Below are positions 2,192-15,962 of a DNA stretch of 46,493 nt, piece after piece; the first letter of the stretch is position 1; every line of letters begins with the position of its first letter. Source of the stretch: Candidatus Woesearchaeota archaeon (GTDB taxonomy: Archaea > Nanobdellota > Nanobdellia > Pacearchaeales > GW2011-AR1); contig CAYRKK010000001.1 of assembly GCA_964424875.1 (NCBI GenBank), positions 1 through 46,493 of the forward strand. The letters are read 5' to 3'. The position numbers were made by a program, and so were the translations under genes. Under the pieces are notes generated by a model. That model saw nothing but the letters and a program-made list of their open reading frames with translations, was not told the DNA's origin and did no database searches.

Positions 2192-3673
2192 ATGAAACTA
2201 AGAATAAAAAAACTAAATTTTTTAACAGGAAAACCAGTCTGCATGATTCATGAAAAAACAGCTAAAAAAATGAGCTTGCATGTTGGAGATAGAGTTTCAA
2301 TTAAAAATAAAAAGAAAAACATAATCTCAGTTATAGATACTATTTCAAAAATAATAACTCCAAGAGAAATTGCCGTCTCAAGAGATATTATCCAATATCT
2401 TAATCTCAAAAATAAAGAAATTGTTAATATAAATATAACAAAATCTCCACGTAGTATATCTTTAATAAAAAAGAAATTAAGTGGCCAAACTTTGAAAAAA
2501 CATGAAATAAAAGAAATTATAGAAAATATAGCAAATAATTCTCTAACAGAAGTTGAAATTGCATTTTTTGTTTCAGCAGTTTATATTCAAGAAATGTCTT
2601 TAACAGAAACTAAATATCTTACTCAAGCAATGATTGACACAGGAAAAAAATTAAAATTAAGCGGGAAAGTTGTAGATAAACACAGCATCGGAGGAATAGC
2701 TGGAAACAGGACAACCCCAATAGTTGTAAGCATTTGTGCAGCAGCAGGACTTAAAATACCAAAAACATCTTCAAGAGCAATAACAAGTGCTGCAGGAACA
2801 GTAGATGTAATTGAAACAATAGCAAAAGTTGATTTTTCATTAAATGAAATAAAAAAAATAATTAAAAAAACAAATGCTTGTTTAGTCTGGGGAGGAGCTT
2901 TAGGTTTAGCACCTGTTGATGATAAAATAATAAAAATAGAAAGAATAGTAAGTATAGATTCAACTACACAAGTATTAGCAAGCATTTTATCAAAAAAAAT
3001 TTCAGTTGGAAGCAAATATATATTGATTGATATTCCTTATGGAAAATCTGCAAAAGTTTCAAAATTACAAGCAAAAAAATTAAAATTAAAATTTATAAAA
3101 TTAGCAAAACAATTTAATCTAAAACTTGAAGTTGTTTTAACTGATGGAACTGAACCAATTGGAAATGGAATAGGTCCTGTTTTGGAAATAAAAGATATTT
3201 TAAAAGTTTTAACAAGAACAGATTCTCCAAAAGATTTAGAAGAAAAATCAGTTTTTTTAGCAGGAGAATTATTAGAACTTGCAGGAAAGGTAAAAAAAGG
3301 TAAAGGCATAGAAAAAGCAAAGGAGATTCTTGATTCAAAAAAAGCTTTTGAAAAATTTAAGCAAATAATAAAAGAACAACAAGGGGATATTAATAAATTA
3401 AACAAATTTAAAGAACAAATATTCCCTCATGTAATAAAAGCAAAAAGAAAAATTAAAATTAAACATATAAATAATAAATTAATCAATCTTCTTGCAAGAT
3501 ATGCAGGATGTCCTGAAGATAAATTAGCAGGAATTTACCTTCATAAAAAAAAGAATCAGATTGCAGAAAAATCAGATAAAATTTTAACTATTTATGCAGT
3601 TTCAAAAGAAAAATTAAATCATGCTGTTTATTTTTATAATAAAAATAAAGAGAAGGTTGTTGAGTTTTGGTGA
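2192..3673 (+). CDS. deoA: AMP phosphorylase (archaeal-type thymidine phosphorylase homolog)
   Basis: About 490 aa with the N-terminal extension typical of archaeal AMP phosphorylases (MKLRIKKLNFLTGKPV...). It has a pyrimidine-nucleoside phosphorylase core (SIGGIAGNRTT, TSSRAITSAAGT). ATG at 2192 is preferred over the TTG at 2180. Confidence 0.8.
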   Translation: MKLRIKKLNFLTGKPVCMIHEKTAKKMSLHVGDRVSIKNKKKNIISVIDTISKIITPREIAVSRDIIQYLNLKNKEIVNINITKSPRSISLIKKKLSGQTLKKHEIKEIIENIANNSLTEVEIAFFVSAVYIQEMSLTETKYLTQAMIDTGKKLKLSGKVVDKHSIGGIAGNRTTPIVVSICAAAGLKIPKTSSRAITSAAGTVDVIETIAKVDFSLNEIKKIIKKTNACLVWGGALGLAPVDDKIIKIERIVSIDSTTQVLASILSKKISVGSKYILIDIPYGKSAKVSKLQAKKLKLKFIKLAKQFNLKLEVVLTDGTEPIGNGIGPVLEIKDILKVLTRTDSPKDLEEKSVFLAGELLELAGKVKKGKGIEKAKEILDSKKAFEKFKQIIKEQQGDINKLNKFKEQIFPHVIKAKRKIKIKHINNKLINLLARYAGCPEDKLAGIYLHKKKNQIAEKSDKILTIYAVSKEKLNHAVYFYNKNKEKVVEFW

Positions 3674-3682
3674 GTGGGATAA

Positions 3683-3696
3683 ATGCCCCCACGATT
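3683..3696 (+). repeat. GC-rich direct repeat ATGCCCCCACGATT, copy 1
   Basis: Perfect 14-mer repeated at 5971-5984, with similar flanks (GGxTAAx upstream). Confidence 0.8.
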
Positions 3697-3755
3697 TTTT
3701 AAACTTCAAGTTTAAGAAATTTGAGAGGAATTAATTTATTAAGAACGACTATAGA

Positions 3756-4232
3756 TTAACCAATTATTTTCTTAATTTCATCTCTTGCCTTGTCGATTTC
3801 ATCAAGAGTTATAGAATTTATTTTATTCTTTATAGTTAGAATAAATTCGCTTAATTCTCTACTATTAATCTCAACAGGTCTATTTTTAAGATAATATTGA
3901 TTGTCTATTCTTAACTCTTTATCATCTTCAAGTTTTTTAGAGCAATCTTCAGGAATTATTTTAATTTCTTCCAATAACTTTGCTATTTCGATTGTGCAAT
4001 CATGTATTTCACACTTAATCCCTAGCTTTTGAAGTAAAGCGTAAATAGAGAAGTATTCAGAATAGTACTTTGTAGTTGCCAGCCACATATTTGATTTGCC
4101 TTTAATGTCCTGCAAAACAGAAAGAGTTTCTTCTGCACTTTGTAGATATTCTCTTGCTAAATTATCATTGGATTTATCTATTTTTAAACCTGCAGATTGC
4201 TTACAACACCATTTTAATTTTTTAACATCCAT
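3756..4232 (-). CDS. HEPN-domain protein, partner of the adjacent nucleotidyltransferase
   Basis: All-helical protein of about 158 aa that overlaps the upstream MNT-type gene by 19 nt, the classic HEPN-MNT arrangement. No clean R-x4-6-H motif was seen (RIDNQYY instead). Confidence 0.55.
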   Translation of the reverse strand: MDVKKLKWCCKQSAGLKIDKSNDNLAREYLQSAEETLSVLQDIKGKSNMWLATTKYYSEYFSIYALLQKLGIKCEIHDCTIEIAKLLEEIKIIPEDCSKKLEDDKELRIDNQYYLKNRPVEINSRELSEFILTIKNKINSITLDEIDKARDEIKKIIG

Positions 4233-4771
4233 TTTATAATTTCTTCAGAGTCTTGAACTATTAAATGTTTCTTTTTTATTTCTTCTTTTAGACTTAGGCC
4301 TATTTCCCCTAATTTTTTTAAGTTAATCAAATGAAATTTTATATTATGTTTTTTTTCAAATTCTTTAAATTTATTTTTTTCAAATTCTTTAATGATAATT
4401 AAATCAATATCATTTGCATTTTTCAAATCAACAGAAGCAGAGCCAAAAATAATAACTGGATTGTTTGACTCATGCAAAAAAGAAACTATTTCTCTTAATA
4501 ATATTTCTTTAGAGCATTTTTTTATCAATTTATTCTTTTCAACTAAAACAAGATAATCTATAATTAAAGGATTAGAATAATTTAATTTGTATAATGTAAG
4601 CCTGCCTTTAATCTGTTTTACAACCACTCCCTCTTTTTCAAAATTACCCAGATATATCCTTGCTGTTGGATGCGGCATTTTTACTTCTCTTGAAATCTCT
4701 GCAAGATGTACCCATTCTTCTTTAAAAAGTAATGGTTCTAAAACTGACAATACTGTTATATTAATAACCAT
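4214..4771 (-). CDS. Minimal nucleotidyltransferase (MNT) with an N-terminal winged-helix domain
   Basis: G-S-x(n)-D-x-D signature in FGSASVDLKNANDIDLI, with an N-terminal wHTH-like region. ATG at 4771 is preferred over the TTG at 4816. Confidence 0.7.
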   Translation of the reverse strand: MVINITVLSVLEPLLFKEEWVHLAEISREVKMPHPTARIYLGNFEKEGVVVKQIKGRLTLYKLNYSNPLIIDYLVLVEKNKLIKKCSKEILLREIVSFLHESNNPVIIFGSASVDLKNANDIDLIIIKEFEKNKFKEFEKKHNIKFHLINLKKLGEIGLSLKEEIKKKHLIVQDSEEIIKWMLKN

Positions 4772-4937
4772 ATTGTTATAAATATAACAGTAGTATTTAA
4801 ATGTTTTGTTAGGCAAAAAATTTAAAAAGCATATATTTTATTATATTAATACCCCCCTAGGGGAAGAGTTCTGTGTAGTACTTTTTATTACGAAATTTAT
4901 AACACATTTTGATACACAAAGTGTGATACTTTTTGTA

Positions 4938-5792
4938 TTACTTTTTTCTTGCTAGATATTGGACAAAAAGGCTTTTTTCTTTCTTTTCTTCTTTGAAATT
5001 GTGATATACCTTTTCTATCACAAAATCCTTACTAAGTATCTCAATCATATCTTGTTGGTAAATTGGGTATAAGTCTAATTTGCTCCATTTCTTATTTTTC
5101 TGGTCATAATAATGAATAACAACAACCGTGTCACTTATATAGGCTGGGAAAGCAATTATATCCTTTTGGAATCCATGATAATAAACCGTGTAATCAAATG
5201 AAAAGTTCTCAAGAATTTTTTCCTTAGGTAAATTTGTTAGTGATCTAATGTAATCATAATTTCTAGAATCAATAAACAAATATCCTCCTTTTTTTAAAAG
5301 GCTAGCAAATTTATCAACAACTATTTGCTGAGCTTTTTTTGTGTATTCTCGAGTTCCTCCACCTATATAAGTTAGAGAGTTTCCTGTTAAAAAACCAAAA
5401 TCAAATAAATGGGTATATGGAGGTTCTGCTTTTGGTAAATCTAACCAATTAGCTTTATGAATAATCACTTCTGGTTTATTTTGTTTGAATAATCTATCCG
5501 CTTGCCTAATAAACTCGTCATCTACCTCATTTGCTTCAGCACCATCTAAATGATAGTTTCTTTCTTTTAGCCCTTGTATAATCCCGTTTAATTCTGTTCC
5601 TCCACCAACACCAAAATCAATAACACTTTTTAGTTTACGTTTAATTATCAAGTTAAGGAAAAAATCTCTTTCTTCTTCTTTTATGTTTCCTTTAAATTTA
5701 GGATAAATATATTTTTCCCAGCTAACAAATTTAAAATCAGAAAATTCTTCTATTGGGTTACTAACATATGGGAGAGTATTAACAAATGACAT
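4938..5792 (-). CDS. Class I SAM-dependent methyltransferase (glycine/sarcosine N-methyltransferase-like)
   Basis: Motif I VIDFGVGGGTE. Also ANWLDL and GNSLTYIGGG segments reminiscent of GNMT-type enzymes. ATG at 5792 is preferred over the CTG at 5873. Confidence 0.65.
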   Translation of the reverse strand: MSFVNTLPYVSNPIEEFSDFKFVSWEKYIYPKFKGNIKEEERDFFLNLIIKRKLKSVIDFGVGGGTELNGIIQGLKERNYHLDGAEANEVDDEFIRQADRLFKQNKPEVIIHKANWLDLPKAEPPYTHLFDFGFLTGNSLTYIGGGTREYTKKAQQIVVDKFASLLKKGGYLFIDSRNYDYIRSLTNLPKEKILENFSFDYTVYYHGFQKDIIAFPAYISDTVVVIHYYDQKNKKWSKLDLYPIYQQDMIEILSKDFVIEKVYHNFKEEKKEKSLFVQYLARKK

Positions 5793-5970
5793 TCTATTAA
5801 AGTAAATATATTGTCCTTTTAAAAGATTTCCAATAATCAATTTAGGAAAACTCGGGGAGCGTTGAACCAGCAAAATTCAGTAAAAAGCTCTCAAAAATGT
5901 GAAAAAAACACGAAATGGATTTCCGTCGATAAAACGAAAAAACTATGTGAGATTATTAACCTTAGGTAAC

Positions 5971-5984
5971 ATGCCCCCACGATT
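5971..5984 (+). repeat. GC-rich direct repeat ATGCCCCCACGATT, copy 2
   Basis: Perfect copy of 3683-3696. Confidence 0.8.
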
Positions 5985-6025
5985 ACTTAATCCCAAATAT
6001 TAACTCCCCTATAACAATTACATCA

Positions 6026-7747
6026 TTAATACAACAACTTATGCACAGAATTCAAATATTTAATATGCTCTCTTCGAATATCTTTTAATTCTGTTATGTT
6101 TCTTTTAGCTTTTTTAATTAACTCTGCTCCTTTTTGACCACTAAGGAGCTTAGGCAAAATAACATAATCAGCACCTTGTTTATATAATTCTAAAGCCTCA
6201 CTTATTCTCGAAGCAACAATGACAATTACTGCCTTTGGATTTATTTTTCTTGTTTTTCTAATTAATAGCATATTATCTTCAAAATCGGGAATAGTGCTCA
6301 CAACAATTTTAGTATTTTTAAGATTTATTTTATCTGTAATTTCTTCATGCATAAAATCACCATAAATGCAAGGGATTTTTTTATCAATTAAACTTTTAAT
6401 TATCTCAGGATTATAATCCACAACTAAAATATCTTTTTTATCTTTTTCAAAATCTTTTAAAATTAAACTTCCCATCCTATGGCATCCAAATATTACCACT
6501 CCTTTTTTATTAATATCAATAAATTCTAATTCTTCTTTTTTTGATTTAATCCCTTCAAGAATATTTAATGGCCAGGCAAACCAATTAACTAATCTTTTTT
6601 CATAAGTTATTAAATAAGATGTAAAAGACATTGTTAAAATAGTTAATAAAACAAGAGTACTAAACAATCCTGAACTAATATGTCCTAAACCAAATCCTAA
6701 GGTAACTATAATTAATGAGAACTCACTTGTTTGCGCTAAAGCATTCCCAGTTAAAAACGCAGTTCTTTTCTTATATCCAAAAATTCTTACAAGAAACATA
6801 AGTAACAAAGGTTTTAGGATTATAACAAGTCCTAATAAAACAAAAAGTAAAAAAACAAAATTTTTTGATATCATGCTTAATTGCATCCCTAATGAAACAA
6901 AAAATATTACTGAAAAAAATTCTCTTAGTGAATTAATATTCCCCTGAATTTCTGTTTTATAATCTGAATTAGCTAAAGCAACACCTGCAAAAAAAGCACC
7001 AATAATTAAAGACAAGCCAGAAAAAAAAGATCCAATTACAAATAAGAACAAAAAAGATATAGAAACCAAAAGAAGCAATTCACGATTCTTAGCTGCAGAC
7101 CTAAAAATAGGATTAGCAATTTTTGATAATATAAATGCAATGACTGCAAATACTGCCGCTTTCCCCAATACAATTGAAATACTATTAAAAGAAAAATCAC
7201 TTGAAAGAACAGTTAATGCAATAATTGCAGCAATATCCTGAATAAGTAAAATACCAATAATAATCCTTCCATGCAGACTATTAATTTCTTTTCTTTCAGC
7301 TAATAAAGTAACAACAATCATAGTACTACTAAATGCAACAACTAATCCAATATAGATAGGAGCTTTTCCAACAAAACCCATCCAACTTGAAATCAAAAAA
7401 CCAATAAAAAATAACAAGACAATTTGCAATATTCCTCCAATAGAAGAAACTTTTCCAACCTCTTTTAATTTTTTAAATTTAATTTCTAAACCTGCTGTAA
7501 AAATTAAAAATGCAATACCTATCTGTGAAAGAGAAGTAATAAGTTGAGGATCTTTAATTAAACCTAAAAACAAGGGGCCAATAAAAATTCCTGTTAAAAT
7601 ATATGCAGGGATTAGTGGCTGTCTCGATAGTCTTACTAGAAAAGCAAAAATAGTAGCAATTATAATTAAAACCCCAATTTCGGTTATGATTACTAACTCT
7701 GAAGGAACTCCTGCCATAAAACTCTGTAAAAAATTAAATATTATCAT
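6026..7747 (-). CDS. CPA2-family cation:proton antiporter (Kef-type) with a C-terminal RCK/TrkA-N domain
   Basis: About 12 transmembrane segments followed by a Rossmann-like segment (VVIFGCHRMGSLILKDF). Confidence 0.85.
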   Translation of the reverse strand: MIIFNFLQSFMAGVPSELVIITEIGVLIIIATIFAFLVRLSRQPLIPAYILTGIFIGPLFLGLIKDPQLITSLSQIGIAFLIFTAGLEIKFKKLKEVGKVSSIGGILQIVLLFFIGFLISSWMGFVGKAPIYIGLVVAFSSTMIVVTLLAERKEINSLHGRIIIGILLIQDIAAIIALTVLSSDFSFNSISIVLGKAAVFAVIAFILSKIANPIFRSAAKNRELLLLVSISFLFLFVIGSFFSGLSLIIGAFFAGVALANSDYKTEIQGNINSLREFFSVIFFVSLGMQLSMISKNFVFLLFVLLGLVIILKPLLLMFLVRIFGYKKRTAFLTGNALAQTSEFSLIIVTLGFGLGHISSGLFSTLVLLTILTMSFTSYLITYEKRLVNWFAWPLNILEGIKSKKEELEFIDINKKGVVIFGCHRMGSLILKDFEKDKKDILVVDYNPEIIKSLIDKKIPCIYGDFMHEEITDKINLKNTKIVVSTIPDFEDNMLLIRKTRKINPKAVIVIVASRISEALELYKQGADYVILPKLLSGQKGAELIKKAKRNITELKDIRREHIKYLNSVHKLLY

Positions 7748-8210: not shown

Positions 8211-8227
8211 AATTGATAAAGGTGTTA

Positions 8228-8308
8228 CGCCGTCGCCCGGAATCGAACCGGGAAGCCCGTAAAGGCACTGGTCTCAAGCCAGTTGGAGTACCATTGTCCC
8301 ACGACGGC
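8228..8308 (-). tRNA. tRNA-Ser (anticodon UGA)
   Basis: Hand-folded cloverleaf. Acceptor stem GCCGTCG/CGACGGC; anticodon stem ACTGG/CCAGT with loop CTTGAGA. A 14-nt long variable arm; T arm CCCGG-TTCGATT-CCGGG; discriminator G. CCA is not encoded. Confidence 0.9.
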
Positions 8309-8332
8309 ATAATAAAAGTATAAGAATGTAGC

Positions 8333-15029: not shown

Positions 15030-15962
15030 ATGTTTGATATAATAACTTTTGGAAGCGGAGTAGTTGATGTTATAGTTGATACTGATTTGAATGAAAAAGG
15101 AAAGTTTATGTGTTATGAAGTTGGAAGCAAAATTCTTTTAAAAAATTTAAGATTTGATATTGGTGGAGGTGGAACTAATACTGCTGTGGCATTTTCAAGA
15201 TTAGGATTAAAAACAGGATGGATTGGAAATATCGGAAAGGATAATAATGGAAAAGAAATATTAAAAACCATTAAAACAGAAAAAATAAAATTCCTTGGTA
15301 AAATTAAAAAAAATGCTGTAAGCGGTTATTCAATAATCCTTGATAGCAAACAGAATAATAGAACTATTTTAACTTATAAGGGAATTAATGACCAGCTTTC
15401 TTTTAATGAAATTGAATTAAGAAAAATTAAAACTAACTGGTTATATTTTACATCTGCTTTAGAAAAAAGTTTTGAAACTCAGAAAAAGATTGCTAGACTT
15501 TTTAAAAAGAAAGGGGTAAAATTAGCATATAATCCAAGTGAGTATTTGATTAAGAGAAAAGATTTATCTGGTTTGTTAAAATTAACAGATATTTTAATAT
15601 TAAATAAACAAGAAGCAGAATTATTATTAAAAAAGAACAAGATTAAGGAAAAAGATTTGTTAAAAGGATTAAGTTATTTAGGACCAAAAATTATTGTAAT
15701 CACTGATAAAAATAAGTTGATTTCATGTTATGATAATCAGGAAGGGAAAAATAAAAAATATTATCTAAAACCAAATAAAATTAAAGTTGTTGAAAGAACA
15801 GGTGCAGGAGATGCTTTTGCTTCTGGATTTGTTGCTGGATTAATTGTTGATTGGAGCATTGAAAAATGTTTGAGACTAGGTTTAAAAGAAAGTGAAGCAG
15901 TTATAAAACATTTTGGAGCTAAAAATGAATTATTAAGGATGAGGTTGAAAAAAAATGTCTAG
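15030..15962 (+). CDS. PfkB/ribokinase-family sugar kinase
   Basis: GGGGTN motif and C-terminal TGAGDAFASGF. SD GAGGT at 15021-15025 precedes the ATG at 15030. Confidence 0.75.
   Translation: MFDIITFGSGVVDVIVDTDLNEKGKFMCYEVGSKILLKNLRFDIGGGGTNTAVAFSRLGLKTGWIGNIGKDNNGKEILKTIKTEKIKFLGKIKKNAVSGYSIILDSKQNNRTILTYKGINDQLSFNEIELRKIKTNWLYFTSALEKSFETQKKIARLFKKKGVKLAYNPSEYLIKRKDLSGLLKLTDILILNKQEAELLLKKNKIKEKDLLKGLSYLGPKIIVITDKNKLISCYDNQEGKNKKYYLKPNKIKVVERTGAGDAFASGFVAGLIVDWSIEKCLRLGLKESEAVIKHFGAKNELLRMRLKKNV

Follow-up and report, generated by a model that had tools for sequence, protein, structure and literature searches.

A probable fragment of an integrase-less cassette array with a tRNA-Arg-derived core between deoA and Kef in a Candidatus Woesearchaeota archaeon

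The DNA stretch analyzed here (the window; 46,493 nucleotides, positions 1 to 46,493 of contig CAYRKK010000001.1 of a Candidatus Woesearchaeota archaeon) contains an island between the convergent genes deoA and Kef, which is bounded by two copies of a 14-nucleotide (nt) direct repeat, ATGCCCCCACGATT. With a probability of roughly 0.8, this repeat is the attachment (att) core of elements that use a tyrosine integrase to target tRNA-Arg genes, and the island is a piece of an integrase-less array of such elements. According to this interpretation, the hosts would be Pacearchaeota/Woesearchaeota-type DPANN archaea, and the primary target of the elements would be the 3′ end of the tRNA-Arg gene. 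Autonomous elements would encode an integrase of 394-440 amino acids (aa), whose start codon is located 58-205 nt from the core. Smaller units of 0.7-4.5 kb would have lost the integrase gene while keeping the integrase-proximal end (the A end, ~130-170 nt) and, in addition, a short arm at the distal end, in which a hairpin or palindrome lies by the core (C, B, D and further types). Their cargo would be one accessory gene or one toxin-antitoxin (TA) pair, and successive insertions at the core would stack the units in tandem. The window would thus present, in this order, 7 nt of an A2-like arm, a core, a HEPN-MNT gene pair, a rearranged core, a cassette composed of C end, methyltransferase gene and A end, another core and 25 nt of a B arm (Table 1). 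In the following, G000 denotes this genome (1,123,843 bp in 130 contigs, 75% complete, 28% G+C), other G numbers denote the genomes of relatives, C denotes a contig and L a fetched DNA stretch.

Sixty relatives were searched at the DNA level, the ends of the deoA and Kef genes were placed by tblastn and the gaps between them were then read. In at least nine genomes of the same genus (G003, G015, G034, G023, G022, G030, G026, G017 and G016), the two genes are directly adjacent, an arrangement that an earlier interpretation made from the letters alone (the sequence-only reading) had proposed to look for. The empty gaps comprise ~10-170 bp (~10-60 nt between the convergent stop codons in G003, G015 and G034, ~170 nt in G023), and in those nine genomes they contain neither the core nor the B arm. 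Judged from this comparison, the DNA from ~3676 to ~6010 is extra DNA in this genome. Other, unrelated inserts were detected in the same gap in G005 (450 bp), G024 (590 bp) and G006 (745 bp). Since different species hold unrelated inserts or none at this position, the gap represents a variable slot. In G021 (C20; L027 1724-4627), it is filled by a 2.9-kb sugar-modification set, whose open reading frames (ORFs) resemble, by translation alone, a cupin-type sugar isomerase, a DegT-type aminotransferase and a glycosyltransferase. G+C-rich direct repeats are absent from this 2.9-kb insert. The G+C content of the island does not differ from that of its surroundings, for which reason the idea of a compositionally foreign island was rejected.

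Reverse-complemented, the first 12 nt of the 14-mer (A[T/C]GCCCCCACGA) correspond to the 3′ end of tRNA-Arg genes. They take in three T-stem bases and the 3′ acceptor strand together with the discriminator base and one more base. The whole assembly contains only two exact copies of ATGCCCCCACGATT, which are the two island boundaries, so that the perfect direct repeat described by the sequence-only reading was recovered; within two mismatches, the window has no copy besides these two. The closest variant in the genome, ATGCCCCCACGAgg on C51, is the 3′ end of tRNA-Arg(TCT) (...TCGTGGGGGCAT), with which ATGCCCCCACGATT agrees in 12 of 14 nt. A real tRNA-Arg(GCG) gene ends in the core in G005, G003, G007, G002 and G065 as well as in the records behind L106, L116 and L107, and in several of these an arm of the A1 or A2 type abuts this end. 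In G005, the A-type arm at the 3′ end of tRNA-Arg(GCG) is followed by a second core 960 bp away and then by a C-like hairpin, a layout that recurs at tRNA-Arg(GCG) of G003 and G007 with one or two stacked units. The genome under study itself possesses a tRNA-Arg(GCG) gene with an A2-type arm at its 3′ end (C58:2177-3876); a degenerate core with a B arm is situated 1.1 kb from the gene, and a 282-aa ORF is enclosed. Two small ORFs of 82 and 78 aa adjoin this cassette. A comparison of the orthologous tRNA-Arg(GCG) contexts did not recover the 637-aa neighbour gene of C58 in the fetched loci. Downstream of tRNA-Arg(TCT) on C51 (2600-2695; L004 1440-1515), there are two more pieces starting with ATGCCC, one of which resembles a 3′ fragment of another tRNA (ATGCCCAACTCAAGATTCGAACTC); these pieces are probable scars of earlier integrations. 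The motif is not a generic terminator. The possibility that the B arm is a tRNA devoid of its T-arm was abandoned, since ARAGORN made no tRNA call in the B arm or in any other part of the island, in the window or in ~45 related loci. The only tRNA gene of the window is tRNA-Ser at 8227-8309.

Outside the core, the island ends belong to a family of mosaic repeats. The region 5839-6009 of the window has matches with 83-96% identity at many places in G030, G028, G023, G031, G009, G013 and G024, which is well above the 70-78% identity of the flanking genes, and further matches to 4866-4941 were obtained in relatives. The 171-nt query was matched in 22 of the 49 genomes of the genus, with up to 16 matches in one of them (G030). 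An alignment of the copies revealed that homology stops at the 14-mer, some copies retaining the left part (A end) and others the right part (B arm). From the fetched DNA, 82 non-redundant core sites, nearly all of them in DPANN archaeal DNA, were classified by arm type. The right arm was of type B at 18 sites, a tRNA body or remnant at 13, C-like at 13, of type D at five and of the type seen at copy 1 of the core at two, leaving 31 unclassified; the left arm was A1 at 20 sites, A2 at 15 and unclassified at 47. A1 as well as A2 was seen paired with each of the right arms B, C, D and tRNA. As positions 13 and 14 follow the right arm, the block common to all sites is 12 nt long. Each type of right arm opens with a hairpin or palindrome near the core, like the T-arm in a tRNA. 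The sites located off tRNA-Arg bodies or remnants lie between accessory one-gene units, and the question raised by the sequence-only reading, whether the motif and its variants mark the boundaries of variable gene content, can be answered in the affirmative for the relatives. That reading went too far, on the other hand, in stating that such a repeat should essentially never arise by chance. In windows simulated with a first-order Markov model, a repeated 14-mer with at least eight G/C arose in 2.5% of the cases, the window contains two other 14-mers of this kind, and over many windows such coincidences are to be expected. Even so, mere coincidence between two unrelated 14-mers rich in G+C, in a window rich in A+T, is already refuted as an explanation, as the core and its arm types recur at the 82 sites, at tRNA-Arg genes and by integrases, and as the 10-mer GCCCCCACGA was encountered 70 times in 25 of the 49 genus genomes, compared to 10 matches of the reversed control pattern. 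It is this comparative evidence, and not the repeat count alone, that excludes chance.

Tyrosine-integrase genes adjoin the core in seven places. In four genomes of the genus, an integrase of 394-423 aa that matches PF00589 above the cut-off has its start codon 58-205 nt from the core. One of them (G031:C140) is encoded by a 5.2-kb element flanked by ACGCCCCCACGAGG and ACGCACCCACGAGA. In G033:C7, the integrase gene lies by a core followed by a B arm, while in G002:C32 and G065:C4 it lies by the core that ends tRNA-Arg(GCG). The metagenome contigs L149, L168 and L205 encode an integrase of the 440-aa type, and the ~190-nt spacer between this gene and the core is homologous to the A end of the window. 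Because of this homology, the A end can be regarded as the integrase-proximal att arm, which has been kept by units without an integrase. Several of the core-associated integrases carry a C-terminal zinc ribbon. In G030, the genome with most repeat copies, an integrase 80% identical to that of L149 is cut at the start of its contig. GTDB records and metagenomes were searched with the A-end pattern AAAAACACGAAATGGATTT. The GTDB records containing it are titled Pacearchaeota, Woesearchaeota or Nanoarchaeota, and 56 of the 95 metagenome stretches returned contain at least one further repeat module, L149, L168 and L205 being three of these. No recombinase is encoded between 3683 and 5984 or elsewhere on the contig of the window, which extends what the sequence-only reading had noted for the window. 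Its proposal to look for a recombinase further away proved fruitful, as this genome encodes five tyrosine recombinases elsewhere and other genomes encode such enzymes beside the same core.

One tyrosine integrase of this genome (384 aa; C18:15002-16214, L123 5002-6215) is 41.6% identical to the tRNA-Arg-adjacent enzyme of G065:C4. Its start is 59 nt away from the contig end, which reads ...GGTTAGATG, and this is the spacing expected for a core. The contig end does not overlap with other contigs of the assembly. As a candidate for the cognate enzyme, the C18 integrase is only a lead.

Relatives possess tandem arrays of similar one-gene cassettes, the cargo of which includes TA systems, Fic and PIN proteins and AAA ATPases. 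The array of G073:C9 comprises HEPN-MNT, MazF, AAA_14-DUF4143 and isochorismatase genes with a core-bearing repeat between each of them, that of G030:C179 genes for a His phosphatase, PIN, HD, MNT-HEPN and AAA_14 proteins. On G076:C14, five cores in one orientation are located within 5.5 kb, and A, core and C are contiguous; in L093, a Fic protein is the cargo. A match to PF00589 was not obtained on the array contigs G073:C9, G074:C14 and G076:C14. The cargo occurs in either orientation, and as it also differs between cassettes, the possibility that the A end serves a single gene family as its 5′ leader or promoter was rejected. Arrays of one-gene units which are split by a conserved palindromic site, carry TA cargo and lack a neighbouring integrase, as in clusters of attC sites lacking integron integrases (CALINs), bring to mind classical integrons with attC-bounded cassettes and an IntI integrase, and integrons have been reported from archaeal metagenome-assembled genomes including Nanoarchaeota (PMC9668308). 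An integron in the strict sense is nevertheless extremely improbable here. The boundary is situated within a tRNA-Arg-derived 12-mer and not at G|TTRRRY, the site is conserved in sequence over 130-260 nt and not in structure alone, the cargo has no fixed orientation, and the associated integrases reside within elements by tRNA genes or the core, with none on the array contigs. By inspection, the flanking GGTAAC and ACTTAAT do not fit the attC motifs RYYYAAC and GTTRRRY either. Hence, of the cassette-like cargo bounded by att or attC sites that the sequence-only reading had envisaged, the att-bounded cassettes stood, while the attC or integron identity had to be given up.

Several points weigh against the interpretation of the island as an array fragment. 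The empty sites of the relatives are devoid of a core-like attB and there is no tRNA gene at the island site, so that a simple insertion by attP x attB recombination would be no more than a presumption here. The identity block is short (12-14 nt), no conserved right arm of the A type is present in cassette 1, and the middle core has undergone rearrangement. At E<=1e-25, a homologue of the L149 integrase was not found in this genome, which is 75% complete, and the best matches of the G031:C140 integrase in it are only XerA-like. The A-end pattern was absent from viral contigs (IMG/VR); a viral origin was rejected on this ground. Finally, the genes between the repeats of G030:C82 are in part ordinary chromosomal-looking ones (Maf, deaminase, RIO kinase). 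Because of the latter, some contribution of an intergenic mosaic resembling repetitive extragenic palindromes (REP) or bacterial interspersed mosaic elements (BIME) is conceivable. As an explanation of the whole, it is quite unlikely that such a mosaic, or a family like the miniature inverted-repeat transposable elements (MITE), was spread by a transposase or kept as a terminator or RNA-stability module, with the genes in between being ordinary neighbours. It would account for the multiple copies (up to the 16 matches in one genome), for their intergenic position and richness in palindromes (e.g. TTAATCCTAAGGATTAA), for the modular build with varying combinations, for the housekeeping-like genes between some copies, for the frequent breaks of contigs at the repeats and for a 55-nt double-hairpin insertion with hairpin-preserving changes in some A ends. 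By contrast, it does not fit with a break of homology at a 12-nt core identical to the tRNA-Arg 3′ end, with arms abutting real tRNA-Arg genes, with integrases by the core in seven places or with an A end homologous to the integrase-proximal spacer. Moreover, the whole island, genes as well as repeats, is missing in at least nine relatives, the units carry cargo, and no terminal inverted repeats accompanied by a variable target duplication were seen, the apparent duplication being the constant tRNA-derived core. Rfam searches, with the gathering threshold on the whole window and with E<=10 on 3600-6100, yielded nothing relevant.

A further alternative concerns the present state of the island. 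It might be an inert scar, i.e. an array fragment from a tRNA-Arg gene which illegitimate or homologous recombination has relocated or trimmed, with cores that are inactive in this genome. The outer ends cut within arms (7 nt A2-like on the left, 25 nt of degenerate B on the right), the rearranged middle core, the empty sites of relatives without attB, the lack of a cognate integrase among the genes found in the assembly and the unrelated inserts in the deoA-Kef gap of other genomes (450-745 bp in G005, G024 and G006, 2.9 kb in G021) are in line with it. On the other hand, all 14 nt are still the same in both outer cores, an intact A end is present, the genome is just 75% complete, and the C18 integrase with its 41.6% identity to the tRNA-Arg-adjacent G065 enzyme lies 59 nt from a contig end. 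Taken together, an inert scar is unlikely, and it would concern the present activity alone, as its origin is the same as that of an att-bounded array fragment. According to the interpretation as an array fragment, the units would have been moved by an integrase acting in trans, and they might still be able to move. In either case, the array piece would have arrived at a site without a tRNA gene and, in the relatives, without a core.

The anatomy of the island is summarized in Table 1. A third core between the modules means that the island consists of two cassettes of ~1.1 kb each, one with the HEPN-MNT pair and one with the methyltransferase gene, plus a truncated third. The heptamer GGGATAA ahead of core copy 1 matches the end of several A2-type arms and GGTAAC ahead of copy 2 that of A1, so that the similar upstream flanks recognized by the sequence-only reading are the last bases of two arm types. 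Along with the truncated B arm, this points to a cut inside neighbouring units at either outer end of the island, the short GGGATAA match being a hint. The B arm follows directly after the core at the 18 sites mentioned and is missing at empty deoA-Kef sites.

Table 1. Features of the island and of its borders (positions in the window)
Feature	Position	Strand	Remarks
att core copy 1, ATGCCCCCACGATT	3683-3696	+	9 nt past the deoA stop codon (3671-3673)
Left end of cassette 1, TTTTAAACTTCAAGTTTAAGAAA	3697-3719	+	palindrome AAACTT-C-AAGTTT immediately after the core
HEPN-domain protein, 158 aa, putative toxin, cargo of cassette 1	3756-4232	-	Pfam HEPN E=0.009, below cut-off
Winged helix-turn-helix (wHTH)-MNT nucleotidyltransferase, 200 aa as listed, cargo of cassette 1	4214-4816	-	weak Pfam matches (NTP_transf_2/Polbeta/HTH)
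Rearranged third core, ATACCCCCCTAGGGGAAGAGT instead of ATGCCCCCACGAGT	4849-4869	+	includes the palindrome CCCCTAGGGG (4854-4863)
C end, left arm of cassette 2	4870-4941	+	hairpin beside the core (GTGTARTAC-TTTTT-ATTAC)
S-adenosylmethionine (SAM)-dependent methyltransferase, 284 aa from ATG at 5792, cargo of cassette 2	4938-5792	-	weak Pfam match (Methyltransf_23)
A end, right arm of cassette 2	5839-5970	+	A5 5839-5870; Aup 5904-5930; A1 5949-5970 (...TTAACCTTAGGTAAC)
att core copy 2, ATGCCCCCACGATT	5971-5984	+	
B arm, truncated and degenerate, ACTTAATCCCAAATATTAACTCCCC (consensus ACTTAATCCTAAGGATTAACTCCCC)	5985-6009	+	ends ~16 nt before the Kef stop codon (6026-6028)

The overlapping HEPN-MNT pair and the SAM methyltransferase named by the sequence-only reading were located, though the Pfam matches of all three island proteins fall below the curated cut-offs. 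At the left border, the core and the 23 nt of the cassette 1 end are 97% identical over 35 nt (3685-3719) to a site with different neighbour genes in G002 (C79). The HEPN and wHTH-MNT genes overlap by 19 nt; the latter starts with TTG as listed, an ATG 15 codons downstream being possible. Its NTP_transf_2 match (E=0.0075) is under the curated cut-off and NCBIfam gave no match for either protein, while homologous MNT/HEPN pairs in relatives reach better Pfam scores. At the DNA level, the pair shares ~80% identity with those of G021, G032 and G025, which are embedded in unrelated contexts and show homology confined to the coding region, with no core at their flanks. Comparable MNT-HEPN pairs are cassette cargo on G030:C179 and G073:C9. 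On G025:C2 (left flank in L033), the pair adjoins a 3′ fragment of a different tRNA (GGGCCCTCGAAGAATCGAACCTCCGCC), which suggests that it also travels with elements using other tRNA cores.

The C-rich palindrome CCCCTAGGGG, which occurs only once in the genome, had been described as a third element separating the two modules. In L019, L017, L126, L116 and L103, the sequence TCTGTGTAATAC..., which begins at 4870 in the window, comes directly after A[T/C]GCCCCCACGAGT. As the C end is directly preceded by the core elsewhere, the palindrome sits in a rearranged third core, and its separating role is confirmed inasmuch as it occupies the core position ahead of a conserved C end. The latter is 82-89% identical to sequences with unrelated cargo on G028:C38, G023:C37, G031:C62, G031:C185 and G030:C153, and a variant in G005 (GTATCATAC-TTTT-TATGATA) preserves the hairpin. 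The methyltransferase ORF as listed extends to a TTG at 5873. Its product matches the NCBIfam glycine/sarcosine N-methyltransferase with E=3.5e-8, far below the cut-off. The gene is present in just 7 of 201 genomes of the order. A copy in another genus (G176) shares 86% amino-acid identity and has no cassette arms, nor were A or C arms found at the methyltransferase homologues of other genera. Upstream of the gene, homology to G176 ends exactly at 5838/5839, the start of the A end.

The A end has a mean identity of 82% over nine copies from different species, and the copy of the window is intact, deviating from the module consensus by 0-3 mismatches. RNAalifold predicted only weak consensus structures on either of its strands, and the idea that it forms a structured RNA was dropped. 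In its distal part (5851-5861), the window contains CGGGGAGCGTT, an inverted core-like run of G. Within the spacers of integrase-bearing elements (L149 and L168), a G run of the CGGGGAGCGTT type makes up one half of the palindrome AACGCTCCCCGAGAGCGTT. This run could be a second integrase-binding or regulatory site. In L018 (2037-2111) and L020 (2081-2137), the A end contains an insertion of ~55 nt composed of two hairpins. Differences between the two copies retain stem pairing (AAAATTTTT-ATA-AAAAATTTT versus AAAATTCCC-ATA-GGGAATTTT), and the insertion has the appearance of a very small, nested hairpin element. A length of ~200 nt is also reached by the A ends in L065, L093 and L103.

Elsewhere in the window, there are other exact G+C-rich repeats of 14-16 nt at 15799/28187 (CAGGTGCAGGAGAT), 21901/22657 (TTCACCCAACCACATC) and 27051/45704 (ACTTAGGAAAGGTGAC), which are probably coding motifs common to paralogues. 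An insertion sequence (IS) with a DDE transposase gene (PF01609) is located at 33-983. The 9-mer CCCCCGACG at 50 and 975, of which the genome has only these two copies, is an ordinary DDE-transposase duplication, and a link between this target duplication and the C-rich motifs of the island, as suspected by the sequence-only reading, was not sustained.

DPANN archaea have tiny genomes, and gene gain and loss in them are little understood. If the island is a fragment of an att-bounded array, it points to a concrete mechanism for these processes with a defined 12-nt core, arms and candidate integrases. It would account for small variable islands with TA, Fic, PIN, ATPase and methyltransferase genes in Pacearchaeota/Woesearchaeota-type genomes, and a search for the core can recognize such islands even where a tRNA gene or integrase is not nearby. 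A more far-reaching idea, which is put forward tentatively and held with less than even confidence, is that these DPANN archaea possess an integron-like gene capture built from different parts, in which the integrases of a few autonomous elements shuffle cassettes in trans. Each miniature cassette would carry one gene or one TA pair and, apart from this cargo, would retain only a short arm with a hairpin and the integrase-proximal arm along with the 12-nt tRNA-Arg core; the cassettes would be stacked at tRNA-Arg genes and occasionally seeded at ectopic positions such as the deoA-Kef gap. Should this be true, it would be a main route of defence and accessory gene exchange for very small genomes. 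An att-bounded array of the kind proposed for the island would be a functional analogue of integron cassette arrays derived from a tRNA-targeting integrase system, which may serve comparisons of how gene-capture platforms evolve.

Archaeal integrative elements were reportedly treated by She and co-workers, and the sublocations of att sites within tRNA genes are said to have been described by Williams in 2002. With the tyrosine-recombinase elements that integrate at tRNA genes of archaea and bacteria, the system shares an att core identical to a tRNA 3′ end, flanking direct repeats, an integrase gene by one att site and partial tRNA copies as remnants. The units of the window differ in that they have no integrase, are ~1.1 kb in size, reside at a site without a tRNA gene and share a block of only 12-14 nt. 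Dehalococcoides ssrA-specific genomic islands (PMC3146451) also occur in tandem, and short direct repeats that correspond to the 3′ end of a small-RNA gene border each of them, but they use a serine recombinase and a tmRNA gene and are much larger. Integrons, reported in Archaea with attC and IntI (PMC9668308), and CALINs are similar in their arrays of small cassettes, often TA pairs, with an inverted-repeat recombination site in between and, in many cases, no nearby integrase. By contrast, the system described here has no attC signature, IntI or attI, its core is derived from a tRNA gene, its sites are highly conserved, and cargo is found in either orientation. Closer counterparts are the cis-mobilizable elements (CIMEs) and other integrase-less att-flanked elements, for which tandem accretion at one att site has been reviewed (PMC5704250). 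They are likewise non-autonomous, carry the att sites of an autonomous relative, occur in tandem at its target and are presumed to be mobilized in trans. However, CIMEs are bacterial, derive from integrative conjugative or integrative mobilizable elements and are usually several kb in size, whereas the units of the window type are archaeal, contain one gene each and have many interchangeable arm types, their mobilization being presumed only. The tycheposons of Prochlorococcus (bioRxiv 10.1101/2020.12.28.424599) share with them a streamlined host genome, in which tyrosine-recombinase elements at tRNA genes seed variable islands by repeated integration, as well as partial tRNAs, degenerate remnants and adaptive or defence cargo. 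They belong to another domain and integrase lineage and carry replication modules, and miniature cassettes with a conserved arm of 130-190 nt are not part of that description. A published description of a cassette system with a tRNA-Arg core was not found in the literature searched; the nearest published concepts are the tycheposons and CIME-type accretion.

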